Virus record (IMG/VR): IMGVR_UViG_3300033463_006479
Location: 128,464 to 192,463 of that record
Length of the DNA stretch: 64,000 nucleotides
Reading direction: 5' to 3' (one strand)
Source of the DNA: a virus
Taxonomy: Duplodnaviria; Caudoviricetes
Each line of letters starts with the position of its first letter. Position 1 is the first letter of the stretch. The notes beneath the pieces are model-generated. The model was not told where the DNA came from. It made no database searches and saw nothing but the letters and a program-made list of their open reading frames with translations. This document shows, piece by piece, positions 2,607 to 61,264 of the stretch. The position numbers and the translations under genes are program-made.

Positions 2607-2683
2607 TGGTGGACACTGGTGGGACTTGAACCCACGACATCCTGCTTGCAAGGCAGGCGTTCTTCCAACTGAACTACAGGCCC
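2607..2683 (-). tRNA. trnA: tRNA-Ala(TGC), CCA encoded
   Basis: Loop CTTGCAA, G3:U70. Confidence 0.92.
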
Positions 2684-2689
2684 AAAAGT

Positions 2690-2975
2690 GCAGCATACCG
2701 AAGTTTTTGCAATGTGCATCGGCCTCTATCGCTGCTGCGGCGAAAAAGCCTCTTTAGTTATTCGGTGAGGCTTGATTTCCGTTCACGCTCGTTTTGCTGC
2801 GGAAGTTTACTCGCATCGTGGAATTGTCACCACGCTCTCCCGCTTTGTGGCGGGAATGTCACTTGACACTTATACGCCTCAACTTTCCAATGCCGTCCGT
2901 TTTCGAAAATTATAATTTCGGTTTCGGCATATCAGCACAAGTCAGCGATGCTTGAACACCAGTCTGCAAGCACTG
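2690..2975 (-). ncRNA. structured ncRNA with RNase P-like or group II intron-like motifs
   Basis: Multiple hairpins; GGAAAGTTGAGGC, GTGGTGACAATTCCAC, GAGTAAACTTCCGCAGCAA, GCAAAAACTTCGGTAT; no ORF. Confidence 0.4.
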
Positions 2976-2980
2976 TGTTG

Positions 2981-3052
2981 TTGTCCCGACCAGAATCGAA
3001 CTGATATTACTTGTGCCAAAAACAAGTGTAATAGCCATTATACCACAGGACA
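2981..3052 (-). tRNA. trnQ: tRNA-Gln(TTG)
   Basis: Loop TTTTGGC in CTTGT/ACAAG stem. Confidence 0.88.
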
Positions 3053-3183
3053 TTACAAGCAACCGTTTTTATCTCTCGGATAGGTTGCTCACCTGCACCG
3101 CTTCCTTTTTTATGTTTCCGTGGCACTGCGGTTTTGACACGGCGAAACGAGGTTTTACACAAAAATTGTTAAAGTCAAAGAAA

Positions 3184-3250
3184 ACAAGGTGCATATGGAA
3201 ATAACAAATTTAGGTGTTGTTTGGAATAATGTTGCTGTACGCACCTTTTG
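3184..3250 (-). ncRNA. stem-TACAGCAA small RNA, copy 1
   Basis: AAGGTGC-GTACAGCAA...GCACCTT-G. Confidence 0.75.
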
Positions 3251-4184: not shown

Positions 4185-4595
4185 TTATTTCTTTTTCCAA
4201 TGTGATTTAATCCCTCCGCATTTTCTACTGCAACAAGGATTTGGGTGCGTTGATAAATTACGTTTATCAAAAATGAATTTCTCACCACAAACTGGACAAA
4301 CACATTCAATAAAAGTTTTTGATTGTTTCTTTTTTGAATTATTTTGTCTTTTTGATATAACTTGTAAGTTCTCTATCCTATCATCCATTCTATCACCATT
4401 TATGTGGTCAACTTCATCATCATTTGCCACATCACAACTATAATATGAAGTATAAAGATATTTTGCATAAGACATTGAATGTTTTTCGCCATTTGCATAT
4501 TTCATAGTTGCAACTCTTCTGGGTTCTTTGTTTATATTTACATAAACACTGGTTACACCTTTATTTTTATAGTATTCACTAACATCAATTTTCAT
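4185..4595 (-). CDS. HNH homing endonuclease with C-terminal Zn finger
   Basis: VDHINGDRMDDRIENLQ HNH_3 motif; CPVCG...CCSRKC. Confidence 0.9.
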   Translation of the reverse strand: MKIDVSEYYKNKGVTSVYVNINKEPRRVATMKYANGEKHSMSYAKYLYTSYYSCDVANDDEVDHINGDRMDDRIENLQVISKRQNNSKKKQSKTFIECVCPVCGEKFIFDKRNLSTHPNPCCSRKCGGIKSHWKKK

Positions 4596-5203: not shown

Positions 5204-5410
5204 AGAAATACAAGGTTTATGTTCTGACCAGCGTCTTCACCGCCAAGCCAATTTCATCTGTTTACGTCCTCGCAAACCTTGCAAAACAAAGGAGTGTGGC
5301 GCAGTTCACCATCAGCCACATTTAGGGCTTTTTTCTTATGGATAGAATTAAAGCGTAAAAACCTTTCCATATACCGAGCAGAAGTGAAGATTCTGGCGGG
5401 TAATGAAATG

Positions 5411-5483
5411 TCGTCCCAACGGGATTCGAACCCGTGACTCCACCGTGAAAGGGTGGCGACTTAAACCACTTGTCGATAGGACG
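5411..5483 (-). tRNA. trnE: tRNA-Glu(TTC)
   Basis: Loop CTTTCAC. Confidence 0.93.
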
Positions 5484-5848
5484 GTGCGTATATGCCATTC
5501 CATTCGGACACTATCGCATTATAGCAAACGTGCGGTAATGTAGAACGTGGATGCGATTGTGTCGCCGCAGCAGTTTTTACATTTTCTTATTGCTTCTCGC
5601 TGAACTGTGGCCAATCCAAACCAAACGGCATATAAGGAAACCGCAGGTAAGTATAGTTGTCTTGCATCGGCGGGCGGTTTCGTATGACCGACACAAATGT
5701 CTCTTGGACGTTATGTTCGCCGCACATTGCGGCATTGCTTGACTGACGGGCGGTTTGACACCTACCGTTCCGACAGCTGCAACCAGTATATATCATTTCA
5801 ACTGGATTTAGAAAACTATGATTTACAAAGGTTTAAAGACTTCCTTAA

Positions 5849-6603
5849 CCTACCACACTATGTTACCATAGCCAAATAATATCACCAAAACAGTCTGAAA
5901 CAAATCAGTTTTCATACATTTGTTACACACTTTGTATCAGGTGTGCAGCCGTGACAGCTCTGTTTTATTATCTGTTGTGGTCTGGAGCACATTATAGCCA
6001 TATCGGAAATTCTGCGCAGTTATAATAACATTTTAAATTTAATGAATTGTTGAGGGTCATACCCGCTCTACCGTATAGAATAATCAAGTAAATAGACCAT
6101 TCTTTCTTGTTTCATCCTGCCACTACTTTTTAAGTCTGTTGTCAGACAGTCATCCATAGTTGGGCAGTCCGCAAGCGTAAATTTGGTGTTACGGACACCT
6201 ATTATTAAAAATTCCGACTGTAGGCTCGTCCTCTATGCTCTCTACACATTTATGATAATGTTTTTCAATCAAAGAATTGCCATCATCTGATTGAAAACAA
6301 GGCAGCAAAAGGGGATTCTACGCAGGCAATTTATTCTCATAGCCCGATTCTCTTTTGCCGCACATTATCATTTTAGCACGGTATTGTCCCCGCACGTTAT
6401 TGGTTAGTGCTGCCGCAGACATCACAAACAAATTCGCTTATGACGGCTGCTGGCGGTATGATGATAAAATGTGTACGGTGTTGCGATTTGGCCATAAGCC
6501 AGAACGGAACTGCACAACACGTTATCGTCAATGGGGATGTCCACCGTTTTAGGGACGTTCTACTACGGGTTGTTCACGCCGTAGCACTCCAAATATAAAT
6601 TCA
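5849..6603 (-). ncRNA. ORF-less group I intron
   Basis: P1 CGCTTTGAAT/ATTTGGAGTG with U.G; P2 CTACGG/CCGTAG; P3 CGTCC/GGACG; P AACGGTGGACATCCC; Q GACAATACCGTGCTAA; R AAATGTGTAGAGAGCAT; S ATAATGTGCTCC; P8 AGCC..TCGGAA/TTCCGA..GGCT; P9 ACCAC...GTGGT then terminal G. Splice sites approximate. Confidence 0.85.
6071..6201 (-). ncRNA. orphan TnpB omegaRNA-like module (IS607/RAGATH-18-type) in intron P8 loop
   Basis: Hairpin GGTGT-CCGTA-ACACC; TACG-CTTG-CGGA-CTGCC...GGCAG-GATGAAA-CAAG; terminal hairpin + ATACGG complementary to loop CCGTA. Confidence 0.7.
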
Positions 6604-6667
6604 AAGCGGGTTGGTGAGCATCTTGCAGAAATTCTGGAAGATGCCGCACACTCCCGTCTGATACGTT

Positions 6668-6788
6668 TCGTATGGAGAAACGGGTTTCTCCTTCTTGTTT
6701 CCACCTGCCGACACTTCTTGGATTCATTTCTGAACGCAATATGTAATCTGGCAGTCCGCAAGCGTTACTTCGGCGGTACGTCCGCCTA
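6668..6788 (-). ncRNA. orphan TnpB omegaRNA-like module, upstream copy
   Basis: Hairpin GGCGG-ACGTA-CCGCC; AACG-CTTG-CGGA-CTGCC...GGCAG-GTGGAAA-CAAG; hairpin GGAGAAA/TTTCTCC + ATACG. Confidence 0.65.
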
Positions 6789-6861
6789 CCATCCGATTGT
6801 CGCATCTGTTTTGGCAACGCCTCCACAGAGCATCGGAATTTCCTTATAGTGCCTTTCGCCA

Positions 6862-7380
6862 ATATGTCAAAGAACTTTGTTCTTATTCCAATATAATAAA
6901 AAATTCGAGAAATCGTGAAATGTTTTTGTCAAATGACCGCCTCTCGGTTTTCATCATATTTTCAAAGAACGCTGCGTATTTAATATAATAAAAATTTTCG
7001 GAATATGCAAAATGTTTTTGCAAAAACTTCAGTTTTCATCATATCAAAGAGCCGCATTTTAGTTTCGCAGTTGTTATCAAAAACAACGCTGCAAAAATAC
7101 AACTTTTTTTAATGCTGTCAACAATTTCGTAAAAAAGTTTTCAACAAAGTTATCAACAGCCGTTGTGTTTCATATCTTCAAAGAACGTTACTCAATCAAT
7201 ATAATAAAAATTTTGAAAAATGGAGAAAACATTGCAACATTTTTCGTTTATCATATCAAAGAGCGTTTTGCCGTTTTTTAGTGTCGGCGCATCACTGTCA
7301 TAATGACTTTGCAAAGATACAACCTTTTCTAATAGTGTCAATACATTTTTCAATAAACTTATCAACAGAGTTATCAACAA
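6862..7380 (-). promoter_or_regulatory. five tandem promoters, each followed by a boxA antiterminator
   Basis: TTGACA..TAnnTTTGC at 7341-7311 and 7121-7091; TTTTTATTATATT at 7198, 6982, 6890; G(T/C)TCTTTGA at ~7264, 7186, 7052, 6970, 6875. Confidence 0.8.
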
Positions 7381-7436
7381 TCTTATTTAATTCAACATTC
7401 ACAATATCAGCAATTTCAATTATCAAAACAAACAGC

Positions 7437-7471
7437 AAAAAAATTGGCGGCATATTTTTGATATACCGCCA
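7437..7471 (-). terminator. intrinsic terminator
   Basis: TTGGCGG/CCGCCAA hairpin followed by T-run on minus strand. Confidence 0.7.
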
Positions 7472-7600
7472 ACCGAATATTTTTTGTACGATATATCGCA
7501 TCACGAACCATATTCGTCATTATAGTTCGCCCAAAAGAGTTGTGATTTACTTGGTCGGATATCGTATAGCTTTGTCATAGTTACTATCGTTTTTTCTTTT

Positions 7601-51148: not shown

Positions 51149-53149
51149 CTACTTGGTGCTTACGTTGAATTTGAGTTTGTTGTTTTTCTTGTCCATAGTT
51201 ATGCTGACCTTGTTCTTGTCTTCACCGCAGTTGATGATTAGGTCGGTAATCTCATCCGATATGTCGTGTTGTATGGCTCGTATCAATGCCCTTGCGCCCA
51301 TCTTCTCATCTGCGGATTTTTTGACAATATAGGATTTCGCATCGCCGCTTATGGAAAGTGAAAACCCCAAGTCTTTCAAGGATTCACGGACTTCCTCAAT
51401 CTCATTGCTGAATATTTTTTCAAGTTCCTTTTCTCCGAGTTCGTTGAAATAGCAGATGCAATCAATACGATTTAAAAACTCTGGGGAAAATATCCTATTG
51501 ACTGTGCTTTCAATTATCTTCCTTCGGTTTTCTTCATTCTTCTTTTCCATATCGGTTTTGGCTGATGCAAATCCGATAACACCACTTGCGTTTTTGGCTT
51601 CCTTTACGCCAGCGTTGCTTGTGAGGATTATGATTGTATTGACGGCAGAAATCTTAACTCCATTTGCGTCAGTTATATAACCCTCATCAAGTAATTGAAG
51701 TATTGTGTTGAATATGGACGGGTGCGCCTTTTCAATCTCGTCAAACAGAATTACCGAATACGGATTGTTCTTGATTGCGTTGCAGAGAACACCGCCTTCA
51801 CCATAACCAACGTAGCCTGGGGGTGCTCCGATGAGTTTGTTCACGCTGATTTCATCGGAATACTCGCTCATATCAAGCCTAATCATAGAATCTTCAGAGC
51901 CGAAAAGATATTCGGAAAGTTTCTTTGCAAGGAATGTCTTTCCGACACCAGTAGAGCCGAGGAATATGAAGTTTCCGACAGTATGGTTTTTCTTGCGAAG
52001 GCCAAGGCGGTTTCTTTTAACAGTCTTGCACACCATAGAAACGGCATCGTCCTGCCCGATTACCTTTTTGGATATGTCGCCTTCCATATTCTTCATCCTT
52101 GTCATATCGCTTTCCGTAAGTTTGGCTACTGGAACACCAGCCATATCGCTGATTGCAAGATAAACATCATCATCGGTAACAATGTTCGGCGTGTCGGATG
52201 CATCGGAAACAGTAACCGCTTCGTCAATATAGCATTTCAAATTGGAAACATCATCATTGAGTTTTAGCATACGTGCCAGTTTGTCCGTAAGGGAAATCTG
52301 GCCGTCATTGGCAAGTTTGTCAATCTCGGATTGTTTTTCGCCAAGGGATTTCGTTTTCTTAATAACGGAATGGTCTGGCATATGCTTTCTGTTGGAATAC
52401 CTTGCATAGATATGTTCCATAACAAGTATGCACTTTTTAGGCATCTGAAATCCGTTTTTCACATATTTGTCAGACAGCATAACAATCTTGTCTGCGGTCT
52501 GCTCGTCCATAACTGTTCTGAACATAAGGTTGTATTCTGGAAGCCTTTTCCGAAGTATGGCCTTCGTGTTGTCCGCAGACTGCGGCTTCACGTTTATTCT
52601 TGTAAAATGGCGAAGAAGGTCATACTTGTTCTCTATGCCTTTCATATCGTTGTTGTTGCAGCAGCATATAACTCTAACACCATATTTTATGGCACGCTCA
52701 ATATGCTGCCATATCATAATGTTCACGATATTGTCGTTGATTAGGGCGGCGATGTTGTCAATATAAAGTATTCGTTTCTCTGGTGCATCCATTATATATC
52801 CGAACACGCTGTTCAAGCGTTCCTCATAATCGGTTACGGATTTGATGCCATCGCTCAATTTCAACTGAAAAAGTTCCATAATCTCACAACTGAAAAATTG
52901 TGAAGGGCAGTTGTAAGTATCAAACAAATGTTGTATGTGCTTGACGAGCGATGTTTTTCCGACACCGTTACCGCCAGTAACTATGACATTGTTGTTCGGT
53001 ATCGCAAGAGCATCGAACACACGGCGTGAATAATCTTCAAAAAACATTGATTCTGCGGCCTCAACTTTTTTAAGGCACGGGTTTTCCTTATTGCTGTCCC
53101 CGTAGATTTTCACGGGTTCGCTTTCTGGCATTTCGACTTTCATCTTCAA
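51149..53149 (-). CDS. ClpA/ClpC-like AAA+ ATPase lacking the N-domain
   Basis: GNGVGKT; VIGQDDAV, GSTGVGKT, DMSEY, GAPPGYVGY, DEIEKAH, IGF loop, GARAL. Confidence 0.93.
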   Translation of the reverse strand: MKMKVEMPESEPVKIYGDSNKENPCLKKVEAAESMFFEDYSRRVFDALAIPNNNVIVTGGNGVGKTSLVKHIQHLFDTYNCPSQFFSCEIMELFQLKLSDGIKSVTDYEERLNSVFGYIMDAPEKRILYIDNIAALINDNIVNIMIWQHIERAIKYGVRVICCCNNNDMKGIENKYDLLRHFTRINVKPQSADNTKAILRKRLPEYNLMFRTVMDEQTADKIVMLSDKYVKNGFQMPKKCILVMEHIYARYSNRKHMPDHSVIKKTKSLGEKQSEIDKLANDGQISLTDKLARMLKLNDDVSNLKCYIDEAVTVSDASDTPNIVTDDDVYLAISDMAGVPVAKLTESDMTRMKNMEGDISKKVIGQDDAVSMVCKTVKRNRLGLRKKNHTVGNFIFLGSTGVGKTFLAKKLSEYLFGSEDSMIRLDMSEYSDEISVNKLIGAPPGYVGYGEGGVLCNAIKNNPYSVILFDEIEKAHPSIFNTILQLLDEGYITDANGVKISAVNTIIILTSNAGVKEAKNASGVIGFASAKTDMEKKNEENRRKIIESTVNRIFSPEFLNRIDCICYFNELGEKELEKIFSNEIEEVRESLKDLGFSLSISGDAKSYIVKKSADEKMGARALIRAIQHDISDEITDLIINCGEDKNKVSITMDKKNNKLKFNVSTK

Positions 53150-53180
53150 TCGGTTTAGATAAACAGAAATTTATATCGTT

Positions 53181-53804
53181 TTATGATTGCTTTTTGTACA
53201 GTTCCAAAAATTCTTCAACGCTGATTACGTGAAGAATGTTGTCTCGGTCTGCAATCATTTCATCATAAGTCAATTTTGATTTATTGGGAAACACTAAATC
53301 TTGTGGATTTTCGTGGTATTCAATAATGCAGCATCCGCAGTCGGTATCAACCGTCTTGAAATCAATGCCCTGCTCGTGCAGCATAGTTATAGCCTTCCAA
53401 ACGTCACCATTCCAACCGCCGACAATCCTCGGAACAAGTTGAGCCTCATAGTTGAGCGGTATGCAATCGTGTACTACAATACGCCCGCCCTTGTTCAAAT
53501 GTTTCAATCCGTTGATAATATCCCTTCCAGCAAAATCCTCTTTGTGCATACCATCAACAAAAATTATGTCAAACTTCTGCTCGGTCTGTGCAAACAGTTC
53601 GTCAGATGTCATACGCCAAGTCAGACAAGGCGGAATCATATCCTCGTTTTGTATCAAGTCTTTGAACTCTGTGAACGGGTCAACGCAGTATTTGTTCTCA
53701 CATTCAACAAAAACAAAACAGCGGCCATCATCCAATCCTATTTCAAGGTAACTATTGTAGTTGTTTTGTTTAATCAAATAGTTTATTATGTCTGTGTGAT
53801 TCAC
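53181..53804 (-). CDS. class I SAM-dependent methyltransferase (Methyltransf_24-like)
   Basis: SYLEIG, FDIIFVDGMH, IVVHDC; GTG start abuts element end. Confidence 0.85.
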   Translation of the reverse strand: MNHTDIINYLIKQNNYNSYLEIGLDDGRCFVFVECENKYCVDPFTEFKDLIQNEDMIPPCLTWRMTSDELFAQTEQKFDIIFVDGMHKEDFAGRDIINGLKHLNKGGRIVVHDCIPLNYEAQLVPRIVGGWNGDVWKAITMLHEQGIDFKTVDTDCGCCIIEYHENPQDLVFPNKSKLTYDEMIADRDNILHVISVEEFLELYKKQS

Positions 53805-54095
53805 GGAATTATCCCTTTTAATTTTGTTAAACTTCAAGTTCAATAGTCGCTTCATTGCTGTCCGTTTGTTCACCAGTTTTCTTGGGTTTTGCAAACGGTT
53901 GGTTTACAGCTCCACGACCGTACTCGGCATTCCTTGCCGAGATATATCTTTGCCATTCATCTGGTTCATATTGCTCGTTGTTCTTCGCCGCATTGATGTC
54001 TCTGTCGTGATGAGCACCGCAGTTCGGGCAAGTCCAATATCTTACACCCAGATTTTTGACTTTCTTGTTTATGTAACCACATTCGGAACACATTT
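53804..54095 (-). pseudogene. tnpB: tnpB 3' remnant retaining the omegaRNA and right end
   Basis: Near-identical to 25895-26160; 26-bp end at 53804-53829. Confidence 0.9.
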
Positions 54096-54142
54096 GATTT
54101 AAATTTTCATACTACAATATAATAAAAAAATCGGAAAATCGG

Positions 54143-54298
54143 CTATTTGTTGCCATCATTTCCGTTTTTTGCGTCTTCCCACATCTTTCTCAACATCTCA
54201 AGTTTGCGTTCACGTTCTTCTTCACGCTCCTTGTTTGTCTTTTTCTTAACTGGATTTACCGTATGTCTTATCTTAAATCTTCCGCAGTTGCAGCCCAT
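54143..54298 (-). CDS. small protein MGCNCGR... (51 aa)
   Basis: ATG at 54298, TAG at 54143, follows structural gene. Confidence 0.6.
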   Translation of the reverse strand: MGCNCGRFKIRHTVNPVKKKTNKEREEERERKLEMLRKMWEDAKNGNDGNK

Positions 54299-54314
54299 TT
54301 GTTTCTAATGTTTT

Positions 54315-56432
54315 TCATCGCAGAACGTCATAATCAAATGAATTGTCCGTCATAGTCGGGTTTATGCAGACGAACTCAATAATCGGATTGTCGTGGGTTA
54401 TGTCTGATGCTGGAACAACAACGCCGCAGCCCCAAGCTCCGTTGCCGCTCTTGTCGGATGCATCGGTTTTCAATACGATGTCCCTGCCGTTCAAATCATA
54501 GGTGCTCATATTCTTGAACACAACTCTCAATATTTGGCCTTCACGCCAAGAGTTGAAAGTATCGTCCACGAACAAATTTATGTCATAAGCGGACGGCGTG
54601 TTTTCAACCACCCATATACGAGCCATATTGGTTGCTTCCTTCAAATTGATGTGAATATCATTGTTATTTCTGTCATTGTCATTCAAATTGATTGCGTTGG
54701 TGCTGCTGATTGCATTGCCATCAACCATAACGGCAGGAAGATTGTAACCATTGTTGGCTGTGCTTATCGTTATCTCGTATGGAACGCTGTCATCAATGGA
54801 AACGCCATACCCCTTATGAATTACATCGGTGTTATATTGCAGCCTTGTGGTGAGCCTGCCGTTCACAATGGAATTGATGTCATCGCTGTTTCTTGCAATC
54901 AAATCAACCAGCGTGCTTCTGTCGGCAAACGCAAGGTTTGCATTTTCCACACTTCGTTCAAGCTCCCCTACCCTTCTGACAATATCATTGTAGTTGGTCA
55001 TAAACAAAAGCACATTCTCCAAATCAGTAAGCCTTGAATTGAGGTTGTTCACACTGCCGTTCATCCTTGTAAACATATCGGCAGATTGCAGCATACGTGT
55101 CATAGCATCGCTGAACAGACTCATAGAGAATGTGTTGTATTCGTTCACCATTGTAGTAACGCCCTGCTTGTTAGGCTCAATGTCAATACGCAGGTTGAGT
55201 TTGAATCCGTAACTGTTTCCATTCTGAACACCGCTAAACGGCTTATATTTCGGATACCTCTGGAAATAATCACAAATGTTTGTAACCTTTATATCGTCAA
55301 GGAACAAAATGCCGTACAAGTTTGAAGTCCTTTTTCCAGAACTTTTATCCACAATGTCATAATAAACGAGAACTGTGTTGAACTCAAAACTTCCACTCAA
55401 AGCAGACTTGTTGTAATCATCAATAGTGACCATACCTCCTTCAACAATGTCCTTGTATGAGTTCGCTTCAAAGTCAATGCACATACCATCAATTCCACTG
55501 CGATACAAATAATTGTCATAAGGGCTTCCGTCATTGAATATTGTGGTTTCTGGCACACTTGCCCCATTCAAAGCGTTTTCTATATTATATGAATAATTGT
55601 TATGGTCATCATACAACGCTTCATAAGCAATACCAGTCGGGTCTGTGTAATGCTGTCCGAGTATGAAATTATAATCATTCTGGCCGCTAACATTTGAAGC
55701 ACTATTAGTTGAACCAGCCGTAAAATTGCCGTCAAATTCTTCTTTGAAAAGAACTGTTGGCGTATAACCAGCCTCACTTGGGACGTGGACATAGACTTCT
55801 GTATAAGCCTCTTCCGCAATATCAACATTGTTTGTTATGTCAATCTGACCTATATAACGAACAACTGGTTTATAACTTTCATCACTTCCATTGAATAATG
55901 TACAACCTTCCATATAACGATGCTCGTGATGGTTGATTAAGGATTGTGCTGTCTGATTGTCACCATTCACCCAATTCATAGCACCCATCTCTTTCAAAAA
56001 ATGCCAGAATACACGTTCTGCAACTGAACGGTCAGTATCATTATCATCAGAAAGGGTTATCAAAAGTTCCTCCATATTGAAAAGATAATCCTGCATAAGT
56101 TCAGCAAATCTGGCTTTTGAAGGAACTTGGGTGCTTTGACTATTACATCTGTCAAGCATATCCTTTATGCCAACTAACTGCAAATAATTTTGTTTATAAT
56201 TTCCACTGTTTCTATTATAAGAACTGCTATCACCTTGATAACCAGTTTCTGGTTCAACGTCTCTGTCTGGATTTATAATATCTGGCAAATCAAGACATAC
56301 AAAATGTGAGAACACAAATTCCTTATCGCTATTGGCAAGACACTTTGAAAGGTCTCTTGCTGCACTGGAAAATGTGTAAAAAGTTGTTCCATTTTCATTC
56401 AATGGTTTTATGACTGGAGTAAATGCTGCCAT
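54315..56432 (-). CDS. probable virion structural protein
   Basis: 705 aa, TATAAATA at 56461-56468, N/D/S-rich with coiled coil. Confidence 0.6.
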   Translation of the reverse strand: MAAFTPVIKPLNENGTTFYTFSSAARDLSKCLANSDKEFVFSHFVCLDLPDIINPDRDVEPETGYQGDSSSYNRNSGNYKQNYLQLVGIKDMLDRCNSQSTQVPSKARFAELMQDYLFNMEELLITLSDDNDTDRSVAERVFWHFLKEMGAMNWVNGDNQTAQSLINHHEHRYMEGCTLFNGSDESYKPVVRYIGQIDITNNVDIAEEAYTEVYVHVPSEAGYTPTVLFKEEFDGNFTAGSTNSASNVSGQNDYNFILGQHYTDPTGIAYEALYDDHNNYSYNIENALNGASVPETTIFNDGSPYDNYLYRSGIDGMCIDFEANSYKDIVEGGMVTIDDYNKSALSGSFEFNTVLVYYDIVDKSSGKRTSNLYGILFLDDIKVTNICDYFQRYPKYKPFSGVQNGNSYGFKLNLRIDIEPNKQGVTTMVNEYNTFSMSLFSDAMTRMLQSADMFTRMNGSVNNLNSRLTDLENVLLFMTNYNDIVRRVGELERSVENANLAFADRSTLVDLIARNSDDINSIVNGRLTTRLQYNTDVIHKGYGVSIDDSVPYEITISTANNGYNLPAVMVDGNAISSTNAINLNDNDRNNNDIHINLKEATNMARIWVVENTPSAYDINLFVDDTFNSWREGQILRVVFKNMSTYDLNGRDIVLKTDASDKSGNGAWGCGVVVPASDITHDNPIIEFVCINPTMTDNSFDYDVLR

Positions 56433-56692
56433 AAGTTTTATAATTTCTTTTAACTGATTATATTTATAATTGGTTTTTAAAATGTACCAAAAACGAAATG
56501 AATATCAAAGACATTTCAAAACCAACTGGAATCCAAACGAAAAATCGCCTTTAAAACCTTTAAAATCCTTTAAAAAATCGTTTTCTTCTTCATATAATTA
56601 TTGATTTTGTTTTTTTGAGATAATTGGTTGATAATGTGTGAAATATAAAAACAGTTTTTTCGAGAGGTCTTGTTTTTGGCATTTTTTGGGGT

Positions 56693-56762
56693 GTTGATAA
56701 CTTTGTTGATAACTTTTTGAATTTTTTTGTTGACAATATGAAAATAAGTTGTATTTTTGCAG
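56693..56762 (+). promoter_or_regulatory. Bacteroidetes sigma-type promoter with upstream TGTTGATAA pair
   Basis: TTGACA...AAGTTGTATTTTTGCAGCG, same core as the promoter at 7087-7105. Confidence 0.75.
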
Positions 56763-56800
56763 CGTAATCAAAAACGAATAACAGATAAAATTACAGAGTT

Positions 56801-57583
56801 ATGAGAAGCAACAACAAGCACATCGTTTTCTTTGACCTTGAAACAACTGGTCTTAACAAGGAAATTGACAGAATCATTCAAATCGGTATGGTCAAGGTTG
56901 ATTATAACGGCAAGTACATCAACCGCATTGAGCGCAAGTTCAACCCTTGCGGTGTCAAGTCCACACCAGAGGCTTTGGAAAAACATCACATTTCAGATGA
57001 GAGCCTTGTGTTTGAACCTACGTTTGAGGAATGTGCGGATATGATTCTTGAATTTCTTGAAGGCTGCGACATCGGAGGTCATAACTGCATCAAGTTTGAT
57101 GTTCCGTTCCTTTTGGCGGAGTTTGAGCGTTGCGGTCGCACGTTCACCATTGAGAAACGCCGTATCATTGACACCCGCAGACTTTACCTGCACTATCACG
57201 AGAAACATCTTGAGGATATGTATCGTGAGTATTGCCCAGACGGGGAAACCTATGTCGCTCACGATGCGTTGAGCGATACCAATATGACAATCTGCTTGTT
57301 CAACGCTATGTGTAAGGAGCATAACACGACCATTGAGGAAATTGACGAGGTTTGCGGTAATGATACACGAATTGATGTTGATGGCTTCTTTGTTCTCAAC
57401 AAGGATTTCAAGGTATGTATGGGAAAGGGCAAGAATGTCGGTATGCTGGTTGAGGATGTTGACCCGTCCTATTTTGAGTGGATGATTGAAAAGGCTGACC
57501 ATATCTCTATGGAAACTAAAAACCTTGCGGCTCGTGTTCTCAAATATATTGAGAAAGTGAGACCGAAGAGTCCTTTGGTATAA
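56801..57583 (+). CDS. DEDDh 3'-5' exonuclease (DnaQ-like)
   Basis: FDLETTG, GHNCIKFD, AHDALSD. Confidence 0.93.
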   Translation: MRSNNKHIVFFDLETTGLNKEIDRIIQIGMVKVDYNGKYINRIERKFNPCGVKSTPEALEKHHISDESLVFEPTFEECADMILEFLEGCDIGGHNCIKFDVPFLLAEFERCGRTFTIEKRRIIDTRRLYLHYHEKHLEDMYREYCPDGETYVAHDALSDTNMTICLFNAMCKEHNTTIEEIDEVCGNDTRIDVDGFFVLNKDFKVCMGKGKNVGMLVEDVDPSYFEWMIEKADHISMETKNLAARVLKYIEKVRPKSPLV

Positions 57584-57600
57584 TGTTGTTTTTATAAATA

Positions 57601-58140
57601 ATGAAAATATACAAGTCTGATATGGCACACATAATGAGAATTGATGAGATGGCAAGCACATCCGATGCCCAAAGCAAAATGGAAAAATGGCATAAAGGGC
57701 AACGAAGGCAGAACGTAAAAGCGTGTTCGGATGAAAAACTTAAAGCATACTATATGATTTGCTTGGATAAGGGTTATGTGATGGAGGCAAGCACGCTCTA
57801 TAAAGAAATTGTGGACAGAGATATTCAAGATGATGTTCCCGAAATGGTGTTTGACAAAGTGGATGGAAAACTTGACACCGATAGCATCTGCAAGTACATT
57901 GAGAATTATGTGAACAAAATAGGAGATAGTGGTGAAGATTTGTTTAAGTCTGTTGAAGGAAACTGTGTGTATTACAGTTGGGGACGTGACAAGCGTTTGC
58001 CTGCAACAGAGGATTATGATTGTATGATTGACAAAGACAATATGGTTATGAAAATGTATGTAAATGATAGTTCACCGATTGACCTAAATGACACACTTGA
58101 AGTAATCAATACTATCAATGATGAACTGTTCGGGGCATAG
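57601..58140 (+). CDS. hypothetical late protein
   Basis: TATAAATA at 57593; HIMRIDE leader. Confidence 0.7.
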   Translation: MKIYKSDMAHIMRIDEMASTSDAQSKMEKWHKGQRRQNVKACSDEKLKAYYMICLDKGYVMEASTLYKEIVDRDIQDDVPEMVFDKVDGKLDTDSICKYIENYVNKIGDSGEDLFKSVEGNCVYYSWGRDKRLPATEDYDCMIDKDNMVMKMYVNDSSPIDLNDTLEVINTINDELFGA

Positions 58141-58238
58141 ATTTGAACGGAATTGTAAGATTAAGATTGCTAATTCTGTTATATTTTGAGGCGGCTTTGG
58201 TCGCCTTTTTTGTTTGTATAAATAAAGAAAAACTTTTT

Positions 58239-58805
58239 ATGAAAATACTTGACAGCAATTCGTTTATTAAAGAAGGCTATATGAATGTGACTTGTGTCGT
58301 GAATAATACGCTTGAACTTAATGCTATTGACACCACTTGCAAATGGGATGGCGAGCATTGGTATTTCTATGAGCGTGAAGGGAACGGCGACATTGACGAT
58401 TTTAGAAAACTTGATAACAACCGAAACACGAATTTTGAGGTTTATCTGAACTTTGATTTTTCGTTGAAAGGCGATGAAATGGGTGAAGTCGGAAAATGCC
58501 GTGTTTCAATGATGGTGAACGTCCATTATATGAATATGGCTGAAGATGACTATGAGATTGAAGTCAGAACCATTGACAATATGGACGAGTTTAATGGTAT
58601 GCTGTATGGCTATGACATTGACACCGATGAATTGAAAAAGGTTTTGTCTGAATCTTGGGATGAGTTCTATGTTTATGAGAAAATCGGTGATGAACTTGAA
58701 GACCGTATAGGTTTGAAACGTATTGGCGATAAATCGGAGAAACTTTGTGCTGAAATCAAGGATAAGGCTATTGATGGTTTCCTTGATGAGTACGCAAACG
58801 AATAA
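58239..58805 (+). CDS. hypothetical late protein (MKILDSNSFIKE leader)
   Basis: TATAAATA at 58217; terminators at 58188-58211 and 58831-58860. Confidence 0.75.
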   Translation: MKILDSNSFIKEGYMNVTCVVNNTLELNAIDTTCKWDGEHWYFYEREGNGDIDDFRKLDNNRNTNFEVYLNFDFSLKGDEMGEVGKCRVSMMVNVHYMNMAEDDYEIEVRTIDNMDEFNGMLYGYDIDTDELKKVLSESWDEFYVYEKIGDELEDRIGLKRIGDKSEKLCAEIKDKAIDGFLDEYANE

Positions 58806-58891
58806 TACCATAGTTTATTTTAACTCACATAGCGGAACTGAAACCAGTTCCGCTTTTTTGTTTTATAAATATAAAGGAAGATTATCGTTTG

Positions 58892-59377
58892 ATGAACATA
58901 AAGTCGTTGCAGCCGAGATATAACACGAAAACCCATTTCAAGCAGGGTTTTTATATTCCGTTGTTTCCAGCGAAGTATTGCGGGAAGATGCCCATAATAT
59001 ATCGTTCAAGCTGGGAGTATAAGGTGTGCAAGTTTCTTGATGAGTGTGCGACTGTGTTGAGGTGGGGTAGTGAGTGCATAAAGGTTTCGTATTTCAGTAT
59101 GATTGACGAGAGATACCACGAGTATTTTCCAGATTTCTATTTTGAATACAAGACGAATGATGGTGTTAGGAAAATAATTGCGGAAGTGAAGCCGAAAAAG
59201 GATTTGACTTCGCCAGAAAAACCGAAGCGTATGACGGAAAAGGCTGTGGAGAAATACCAGTATCAAGCCAAGGTCTATATACGCAATATGGAGAAGGCGA
59301 AAGCCTGCCGCAACTATTGCGACCTTCACGGAATGGAGTACAAGTTCATAACGGAGGATTCGAAGTTGTCCTTTTAG
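58892..59377 (+). CDS. head completion nuclease (T4 gp4-like)
   Basis: IIYRSSWE, WGSE, YFPDF, EVKP, FITE. Confidence 0.9.
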   Translation: MNIKSLQPRYNTKTHFKQGFYIPLFPAKYCGKMPIIYRSSWEYKVCKFLDECATVLRWGSECIKVSYFSMIDERYHEYFPDFYFEYKTNDGVRKIIAEVKPKKDLTSPEKPKRMTEKAVEKYQYQAKVYIRNMEKAKACRNYCDLHGMEYKFITEDSKLSF

Positions 59378-59389
59378 AAAAACAAATGA

Positions 59390-61264
59390 TTGCTGATGGC
59401 TGAAAATATTTCTGGAGCGTTTGCTGATATGTTTAACCCATATTCCGATGTGTGGGAAGTTTCTGGTACTGGAGCACCTGCTTGGGCTTGGAAAAGGTCT
59501 AACAAGGATGGAACTGATGTTGTCGGTGATGTCTATACAACTGTAAATGTTGATAGTAACGACAAAAAGGAGAAGAAAACTGTTGCAAAGGATTTTTATG
59601 ATATTCGCACGGAAAGTCTGTATGCTCCGTTCAGTATGTTCTCACGCCATATGCTTATGGATTATATCGGTATTCTCGGCATTATGCGTGGTGGTGATGA
59701 GTCTGTCTTATCGAAGAACTTTGATACTGGCCTTGCCCGTGCTGGACTTATGTGGTCTAACGTAGAGCCGACATACAAGAATATCATTGATGCTTTTCAG
59801 AACATACAAGCTGGAAAATACAAGATACAAGATTTCATATACAACAAGTATTATAAGATGATACCGACAAACTACCTTATTACATTGAGGCGTTATGGTA
59901 TTCCTTGTACTGACATTCCGTTCACTTTGGCATATCCAGAGGACATACACGCAGATATGAACACGAGGTCTGCGTTGCTTCCGATAGCGACCGCAACAAC
60001 ATATATGTCGGAGGTTGCTGGAAACAAAATGGATGATATTTTGAAATTTACTTGGGGAACAAACTGGAAAGAACAGACTTCTGAAATACAGACCATTACC
60101 AGCGGAACGCCAGGAGCCTCCAGTTTCGGCATTGGCGGTATGCTTTTTGACAAGTCGCAGCAGTTCGGCACTGTCGGTGCTGGTGTGGGTGCTACATTCT
60201 TCAGTATGCTTTCTGGTCATAATTATTCACCGCAGCAGATGACCATTGCTGGGCAGGCTGCGCAGATAAATCCGTGGGAGAAATACTCAAAGTACACGCA
60301 GGGACCAGTTGACGTGGTGATGAAAACCAATATTCGTGACCTTGGTCTTAATTTTGAAAACAACTTCAATTTGAAGTTTGAATATGAGTTGAAATCCCTT
60401 CATTATGTAAACCCGAAGATTGCTATGCTTGATATTATAGGCAATATGATTCTTATGGGAACTAACACTGGTACTTGGTGGGGTGGTGCTACCCGTTATT
60501 ACGGAAATGGCGGTGGTTTCGGCAAACAGCCAGGAGACCTTGGTGCATTTGCCCGTGGTGACTATGCCGCATACGGAAAGAGCCTTGTTGAGGACGCTAT
60601 GGGGCAGATTGAGAGTTGGAATGGCGGCGAGTTCCCGCAGAGCCTTGAAGAATGGGCTACCTTGGCGAAGAATGTAATCAAGGGTGGCTTGCAGAATATC
60701 ATTGGTGGTCTTATAAACGGAAAGCTCGGAAAACTTGGTGTTACGCAGCCAGCACACGCATTGTTGAGCGGTGAGGCTACTGGTATGTGGCACGTTACCG
60801 TTGGCAATCCGCTCAATCCGATAGCGATGATGGGCAATATGGTTTGTAACCAGATTGAAATGCAGATGGGTGAAGGTCTTGGTTATGATGATTTTCCAGT
60901 AAATGTGGCATTCACTTGCCAGATAAAGCACGGCAAGCCACGTGATGCTGGTGATATTGAATCAATGTTCAATGCTGGTAAGGGACGTTATTTCCACACC
61001 CCGTATCTTGGAAATCTTGACAAGGACAATCCAGAGCACGCTGAATTGATTGCGTATTACAACCAGATTGCTGCTGGTAGAGAGAATATACCAATGAATG
61101 TCTATGGTGGGAATGGCAAAGGTGGGAATGGCAAAGGTGGAAATGGCAAAGGTGTTTCGTCAAAAAGACCAGAAGGCAAATATGCTGAAAGAAACGAACC
61201 TGGCAGAAAGGTGCAGGGCTATATGAACAAGCAGATAGACAAAATTATAAGTCTGATACGATAG
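59390..61264 (+). CDS. probable baseplate/tail structural protein
   Basis: Late operon with gp4; tube-fold-like segments; GGNGK x3 tail. Confidence 0.5.
   Translation: MLMAENISGAFADMFNPYSDVWEVSGTGAPAWAWKRSNKDGTDVVGDVYTTVNVDSNDKKEKKTVAKDFYDIRTESLYAPFSMFSRHMLMDYIGILGIMRGGDESVLSKNFDTGLARAGLMWSNVEPTYKNIIDAFQNIQAGKYKIQDFIYNKYYKMIPTNYLITLRRYGIPCTDIPFTLAYPEDIHADMNTRSALLPIATATTYMSEVAGNKMDDILKFTWGTNWKEQTSEIQTITSGTPGASSFGIGGMLFDKSQQFGTVGAGVGATFFSMLSGHNYSPQQMTIAGQAAQINPWEKYSKYTQGPVDVVMKTNIRDLGLNFENNFNLKFEYELKSLHYVNPKIAMLDIIGNMILMGTNTGTWWGGATRYYGNGGGFGKQPGDLGAFARGDYAAYGKSLVEDAMGQIESWNGGEFPQSLEEWATLAKNVIKGGLQNIIGGLINGKLGKLGVTQPAHALLSGEATGMWHVTVGNPLNPIAMMGNMVCNQIEMQMGEGLGYDDFPVNVAFTCQIKHGKPRDAGDIESMFNAGKGRYFHTPYLGNLDKDNPEHAELIAYYNQIAAGRENIPMNVYGGNGKGGNGKGGNGKGVSSKRPEGKYAERNEPGRKVQGYMNKQIDKIISLIR

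Follow-up and report, generated by a model that had tools for sequence, protein, structure and literature searches.

The stretch of DNA analysed here, hereafter the window, comprises 64,000 nt (positions 128464-192463) of G000, a 192-kb IMG/VR virus record with a CheckV completeness of 70% whose nearest named DNA matches are the Prevotella Lak megaphages. Seventeen tRNA genes are located on the minus strand between positions 348 and 5483, and an ORF for a 136-aa HNH endonuclease (4185-4595, minus) lies within this array. Between the terminator-like hairpin and promoter cluster on one side and the tRNAs on the other, ∼1.4 kb of non-coding DNA on the same strand holds two modules, A and B (Table 1). 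Both are sense-oriented behind the promoters and ahead of the tRNA array, as had been proposed in a first-pass annotation of the locus, and no minus-strand terminator-like site was predicted between the promoter cluster and the tRNA array, through A and B. A search with a 19-mer of the leader retrieved a single true syntenic relative, the 413-kb phage L058; with the neighbouring DUF285 protein as a query, no syntenic loci were retrieved.

The non-coding stretch of ∼360 nt between the intron-like element and tRNA-Glu (5484-5840, minus) contains blocks conserved with L058:2690-3230, suggesting a structured leader RNA of some kind; it has no Rfam match. A GTTCTTTGA(CATATTGG) motif follows each promoter (6862-6880 and 7040-7060) and is found likewise after promoters preceding the tRNA arrays of two unrelated phage contigs (L100 and L102). 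This motif is a candidate for a leader signal, or one of the antitermination type, common to these operons.

Table 1. Features of the locus and related genes. Positions refer to the window, or to the whole record where prefixed with G000. R1 is a covariance model built exclusively from tnpB-linked copies of the scaffold.
Feature	Position	Strand	Remarks
tRNA-Glu, first of the 17 tRNAs downstream of A and B	5410..5483	-	
Intervening sequence (group I-like intron homologue) holding B	5841..6609	-	nhmmer E 2e-122 to homologue profile
Guide position of B	6051..6070	-	first 18 nt equal to the B-less L058 allele, there behind TGGG
Module B, ORF-less omegaRNA scaffold and right end of IS607-type tnpB element	6071..6203	-	133 nt; R1 match over full length, 130.8 bits
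Guide position of A	6648..6667	-	20 nt directly 3' of right end; 6668 is the last position homologous to tnpB right ends
Module A, ORF-less omegaRNA scaffold and right end of IS607-type tnpB element, divergent copy	6668..6790	-	R1 match over full length, 83.3 bits
Promoter cluster of leader/tRNA operon	6890..7341	-	four promoter-like sites; repeat units seen in sequence; kept in L058
Terminator-like hairpin ending the upstream unit	7442..7474	-	14-bp stem and T run; kept in L058
Window's own tnpB, family 2, 409 aa	25887..27116	-	Pfam and NCBIfam TnpB matches
Truncated family-2 tnpB 3' piece (aa 319-408) and scaffold	53830..54099 (region 53827-54140)	-	tblastn, 92% identity
Cognate tnpB, family 1, 433 aa	G000:70592-71893		three TnpB Pfam domains; 57 kb from A/B
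Scaffold of the genome's full copy	G000:71716-71862		R1 match end to end, 153.7 bits

A and B are homologous: they align end to end and have in common an exact 16-mer absent from the rest of the window, and the single architecture first read from their sequence is confirmed. The motifs on which that reading was based are all present in both: a 5-bp hairpin with an NCGTA loop, a CGGA // G-NN-GAAA junction framed by the CTTG/CAAG and CTGCC/GGCAG stems, a terminal hairpin and, at the 3' end, a ...TACG(G) able to pair with the first loop. A third copy of the scaffold in G000, 85% identical to B (85-89% between the scaffolds of B and of the full-length tnpB), overlaps the 3' end of the 433-aa ORF, here called the cognate, or family-1, tnpB.

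TnpB/omegaRNA systems are the ancestors of Cas12 and are currently viewed as RNA-guided homing nucleases. The RuvC and zinc-ribbon motifs of the 433-aa protein align with those of ISDra2 TnpB (E 3e-53). Linkage of the scaffold to tnpB was found at 39 IMG/VR loci, mostly on contigs >100 kb and often several times per phage, as well as in Lak-A, Lak-B, Lak-C and four MAG contigs. In more than 40 linked copies, the scaffold begins within or just after the last codons of the gene and stops where the homology between copies stops. A and B are full-length homologues of this very segment, from the tnpB 3' end to the right-end boundary, which is the location of an omegaRNA. The objection that no cognate tnpB might exist, raised in the first-pass annotation itself, thus fails, a full-length gene with the same scaffold being present in G000 and in ∼40 related loci.

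Using the cognate TnpB as a query, tblastn matched only the last ∼15-35 codon-equivalents at A and B, and no tnpB coding sequence was found upstream of A. No left-end homology was detected near either module, the other left-end-like copies in the genome all preceding other genes. As tblastn reaches only the tail encoded by the scaffold and no left end lies nearby, A and B are truly ORF-less, as initially described. Their identity as ORF-less omegaRNA/right-end modules of an IS607-type element is nearly certain.

The window's own TnpB is 39% identical to the cognate protein. The 3' end of its gene (27116-25887, minus) has the analogous hairpin and junction topology in a different sequence, as was noticed at the outset. 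The truncated family-2 piece begins with its own ATG, which opens an 88-aa zinc-ribbon/RuvC-III mini-ORF, and the TTTTTATTATATT promoter-type motif of the phage stands immediately before it. Outside the window, G000 encodes two TnpB/Cas12-like proteins of 545-553 aa with RuvC and zinc-ribbon motifs (G000:46437-48266, plus; G000:123808-121971, minus). In front of each of these genes lies a leader of ∼200 nt with 70-84% identity to the one at the left end of the family-1 tnpB, and this leader is thus common to different nuclease genes.

The fold of the scaffold was assessed in an alignment of 38 distinct copies (A, B and relatives). Seven helices are proposed: the first hairpin, a pseudoknot between its loop and the five terminal bases, the CTTG/CAAG and CTGCC/GGCAG stems, an extension of 3 bp, an inner hairpin and the terminal hairpin. 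The 33 pairs of this model, pseudoknot included, are standard in 95.3% of 1247 cells, with two-sided changes in 22 of the 33 pairs, and a control with slid partners gave 35-46% pairing. Within the pseudoknot, covariation replaces CCGTA:TACGG by CTGTA:TACAG or TCGTA:TACGA. All 33 pairs are intact in B and 31 in A, whose divergence is about 25%. The minimum free energy fold of B equals the consensus (z -3.5), and that of the genome's full copy also reproduces the model. The tnpB-linked copies score 121-165 bits with R1; B falls inside this range and A below it. At the junction of the two long stems, a 3-nt bulge followed by tandem G-A/A-G would give a kink-turn-like element, judging from the sequence.

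A relationship to the kink-turn RAGATH-18 RNAs had been suggested for these modules. This membership is ruled out by the lack of a match to the Rfam model at E ≤ 10, both in positions 5400-7500 of the window and in the linked copy L002:1300-1800. Moreover, neither at the gathering cut-off nor at E ≤ 10 did any Rfam model match the two modules, the tnpB-linked scaffold or that of family 2. The scaffold family, with ∼45 members and strong covariation, is absent from Rfam.

The type of the parent element was deduced from its ends and its transposase. The left boundary could be located in cases with several copies to compare; these left flanks (13 copies) end in (T/A)GGG, and the right ends and scaffolds end in ...ACGG, usually followed by T; the junctions carry the GG core of IS607 elements next to a TGGG-type target. 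In CboIStron, TGGG has been defined experimentally as both the TnpA target and the TnpB TAM, and the scaffold ends in ...UCGG (PMC10690162). The ends found here mirror this organization and therefore indicate the IS607 type. A serine-recombinase TnpA beside tnpB is present in relatives: in L053, a 72%-identical relative, an IS607 transposase equivalog lies immediately upstream (NF033518, 200 bits versus a cut-off of 110). Of the two TnpB models, that of IS200/IS605 gives the cognate protein a higher score than that of IS607. The G000 record, at 70% completeness, contains neither an IS607 TnpA nor a Y1 transposase, its sole resolvase match being weak and of the invertase type, so that its copies are non-autonomous. 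A MAG contig carries an internal-deletion derivative of the same IS (L113:1476-1710) that retains both ends and is a true miniature element, the left end and the first 12 codons being fused to some 20 terminal codons of tnpB, starting near aa 358, and the scaffold.

B lies within a sequence that is found uninterrupted in relatives, in agreement with the nested position first proposed for it. Without B, window positions 6609-5841 are homologous to L058:2212-2684 and, in the 334-kb phage L008, to a pair of sequences measuring 518 and 569 nt, both of which were taken into the nhmmer profile. The final base is G in all four copies. In L008, tRNA-Arg(UCU) and tRNA-Ser(UGA) (680-1263 and 2676-3213, minus) each have an anticodon-loop intron of 518-569 nt according to ARAGORN. 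Introns in the anticodon loop of bacterial and phage tRNAs are group I introns. Since the homologues split tRNA anticodon loops, the group I label seems reasonable for the intervening sequence, although RF00028 matches neither the window copy nor the uninterrupted L058 copy nor the L008 tRNA introns. The P8 assignment first given to the loop that holds B is likewise tentative. RF00028 had a single match, below threshold and unrelated, at another place in the L008 record. The intron core may resemble the Azoarcus tRNA-Ile intron in sequence. Neither a split tRNA nor recognisable tRNA exons were found around the window copy. An IStron, which combines an intact IS605/IS607 element with the 3' part of a group I intron, is ruled out here, as only a 133-nt right-end stub is present, at an internal position.

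Comparison with L058 gives the polarity of these events as insertion. This phage shares with G000 the terminator, the repeats of the promoter region, the leader, the intervening sequence and the initial tRNA-Glu, and has neither A nor B. Its sequence at the site of B reads ...AAGTGGG followed by 18 nt identical to those after the right end of B, and the same TGGG and target are found in L103, a short metagenome contig. Relative to L058, the flank to the left of B is short of about 16 nt, among them the TGGG; B thus arose by a deletion running from the left flank to just before the scaffold. The flank of A is too diverged from L058 for such a reconstruction.

Homology to tnpB right ends stops at ...TACGG in B and at ...TACGA in A, so the guide starts predicted from the sequence were correctly placed. 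The accompanying proposal to look for guide targets in phage DNA bore out for B, with its TGGG-flanked matches in L058 and L103, and not for A, for which no TGGG-flanked match was found in G000, IMG/VR or the syntenic L058. Besides L058, all exact matches to 16-mers of the two guides in IMG/VR lack a TGGG flank and share nothing beyond the 16-mer. From its sequence, the guide of B would thus have a natural TAM-flanked target, the empty allele. Such a TGGG and guide match is expected of any IS607 right-end remnant and by itself is no sign of function or selection. Near-matches to the guide of A (16/20) in a repeated DUF285 coding motif (window 9667; G000 33810, 44704 and 87069), located behind ATGG or ACGG, were judged to be a chance or repeat effect.

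For the full-length copy, the first 11-12 nt of the guide equal the second half of a ∼24-nt motif present in at least 12 copies in G000 outside the window (15106, 26142, 26810, 28202, 28976, 29604 and 30495, plus; 51912-59612, minus), where no TGGG precedes it. This is probably a promoter or regulatory motif of the phage into which the IS inserted.

Decay of IS copies is known and expected, and we compared what is lost and kept in the partial copies. Nine distinct ones were found: A, B, two family-2 pieces in G000 and five in other records. All nine keep the whole scaffold and the right end, and none consists of the 5' part only. In five whole phage records and about 0.33 Mb of loci, the model matched no partial scaffold. 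The left end points of the family-1 partial copies fall between 0 and ∼215 nt upstream of the scaffold, never inside it. This distribution looks less like random erosion than like retention of a guide module. The scaffold itself served to find some of these loci, which inflates the count of 3' retention; in the unbiased subset, the scaffold is kept in 6/6. The four scaffold-only copies (A, B, L008 and L045) are all sense-oriented and located in tRNA arrays. An origin of such copies by TnpA recombination at an internal GG was rejected, as B and L045 keep 5-20 nt upstream of the GG.

The 26 differences between B and the full copy were polarised with three outgroups. All but one of them occurred on the branch of B, some at positions conserved in 91-100% of the linked copies; an 11-nt deletion in the terminal hairpin is among them. 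The four substitutions in paired columns on this branch all preserve pairing, one of them being two-sided. In A, 12 of the 38 unpaired positions conserved in the family have changed (26/38 kept, versus 30-38 in linked copies), and the changes extend to the invariant unpaired motif that separates the third stem from the inner hairpin. Both modules thereby appear to show relaxed constraint. A 16-mer specific to the divergent middle region of A gave 17 matches, none with a scaffold, so that its parent subfamily was not found; A might descend from an unsampled subfamily instead of decaying.

We propose that two insertions of IS607-type tnpB elements into the leader RNA of the phage tRNA operon left A and B, one near the 5' end of the leader and the other in a peripheral loop of the intron-like intervening sequence. 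Internal or 5' deletions would then have removed the left end and the nuclease gene while sparing exactly the omegaRNA scaffold and the right-end junction. The modules would be transcribed with the leader and fold into the scaffold, with the adjacent flank as guide. In G000, they would now be mainly relics under relaxed constraint, a reading to which we assign a probability of roughly 55%. The nuclease of A would probably fail to recognise this module by now. B has kept a competent structure, and the intact 433-aa TnpB could load it; its maintenance for that protein is not demonstrable.

A possible alternative, already raised in the first-pass annotation and given less credence here, is that A and/or B are maintained as trans-acting guide cassettes loaded by the resident TnpB, B being a far likelier candidate than A. 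The complex would cut insertion-free alleles (TGGG and flank) in co-infecting relatives, and either the cassette and linked DNA would be copied into the rival by recombination, as a homing element free of nuclease and transposase, or the rival would be excluded. The presence in the same genome of a cognate TnpB that appears catalytically intact is in line with this idea, as are the full pairing of B, its R1 score within the range of linked copies and the sense orientation of both modules behind strong promoters. Moreover, the scaffold is complete in every partial copy, deletions tending to end a short way upstream of it, and ORF-less IS605 derivatives have already been proposed to encode omegaRNAs used in trans (PMC10055086). 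The match between the guide of B and the B-less alleles of L058 and L103 also fits; however, it holds for any right-end remnant and so is not evidence of selection. The branch of B, moreover, evolved ∼25 times faster than that of the full copy and was hit at otherwise invariant positions, whereas A has lost both the invariant single-stranded motif and a target. More speculatively, stubs made of scaffold and right end could be a life form of TnpB elements in its own right, guide-only drive cassettes that persist and spread between co-infecting jumbo phages, any resident TnpB of the family cutting the TGGG-flanked empty allele and repair copying the stub in. If true, such cassettes would do without transposase, nuclease and left end, and a site in a highly transcribed tRNA-operon leader or intron loop would give them expression at no cost to the phage.

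It is improbable that the modules were exapted as structural RNA domains that aid the leader or intron RNA independently of TnpB, for instance as a shield of the 5' end, as a processing mark or as a compact, inert filler of the peripheral intron loop. Such a role would account for the preservation of the helices of A and not of the unpaired positions invariant in the TnpB family, and for the location of both modules inside a long conserved non-coding leader. However, the syntenic phage L058 manages without either module, the other scaffold-only copies occupy unrelated positions in tRNA arrays and no conserved partner was found. Non-autonomous miniature transposons of the PATE/MITE type, mobilised in trans by an IS607 TnpA, are very improbable: the L113 derivative illustrates that the family can give rise to such elements, but A and B have no left-end homology, and hence not the two ends of a PATE or MITE, and no transposase for them is encoded in the 70%-complete G000 record.

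These modules can be compared with several known systems. As in the ISDra2 TnpB omegaRNA (PDB 8EXA/8H1J protein relatives), the RNA overlaps the tnpB 3' end, a pseudoknot joins the 5' loop to the 3' end and the guide lies downstream. ISDra2 belongs, however, to another transposon family, with a Y1 TnpA and a TTGAT TAM, and has no detectable similarity in RNA sequence. The RAGATH-18-derived reRNAs of IS607 TnpBs (ISFba1; PMC11061315) are alike in the kink-turn-like junction, the pseudoknotting and the guide RNA at the right end. The ISFba1 scaffold measures 187 nt, is fully separate from the ORF and works with AGGAG/GAGGG TAMs (PMC11061315), whereas the scaffold described here is ∼125-150 nt long, may overlap the tail of the ORF, has (T/A)GGG flanks and does not match the covariance model.

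There is also a resemblance in layout to the IS607-family TnpB omegaRNA of the Clostridium botulinum IStron (PMC10690162): the left end borders on a G-rich (T/A)GGG, the flank beyond the right end serves as guide, the ...CGG with which the scaffold closes keeps the element's own junction from being a target, a serine-recombinase TnpA is present in some copies and there is an association with an intervening sequence of the self-splicing type. Here, in contrast, the scaffold has no Rfam match, the TnpB scores higher on the IS200/IS605 model, the nuclease gene is gone and remnant B occupies an internal loop of the intervening sequence rather than its 3' end. IStrons in general (PMC4227781, PMC10690162) likewise join an IS605/IS607 element to a self-splicing-type intron, by which the insertion is removed from RNA. 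In them an intact IS sits in the 3' part of the intron, whereas here an omegaRNA/right-end stub sits in a peripheral loop, in a non-coding host RNA and with RF00028 unmatched.

Finally, the PATE-like ORF-less derivatives of IS200/IS605 elements (Meers et al., PMC10055086) also have no protein genes, keep the omegaRNA and would need TnpB from another element in trans, and the supply of omegaRNAs in trans by ORF-less derivatives is already known as a proposal for them. PATEs keep both ends, and TnpA can move them; A and B have the right end only and cannot be transposed. The novelty lies in a form that recurs in jumbo phages, with the right end alone and exactly the guide scaffold preserved, in its setting in the leader of a phage tRNA operon and in its placement within an internal loop of an intron-like RNA. 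The combination with a cognate nuclease encoded at another locus of the genome, and with a TGGG-flanked target occurring naturally in a related phage, is equally new. If active, these stubs would be smaller than any RNA-guided selfish element described so far and would serve as a device of phage-versus-phage competition; if inactive, they provide a natural series for determining which part of a TnpB element decays last.
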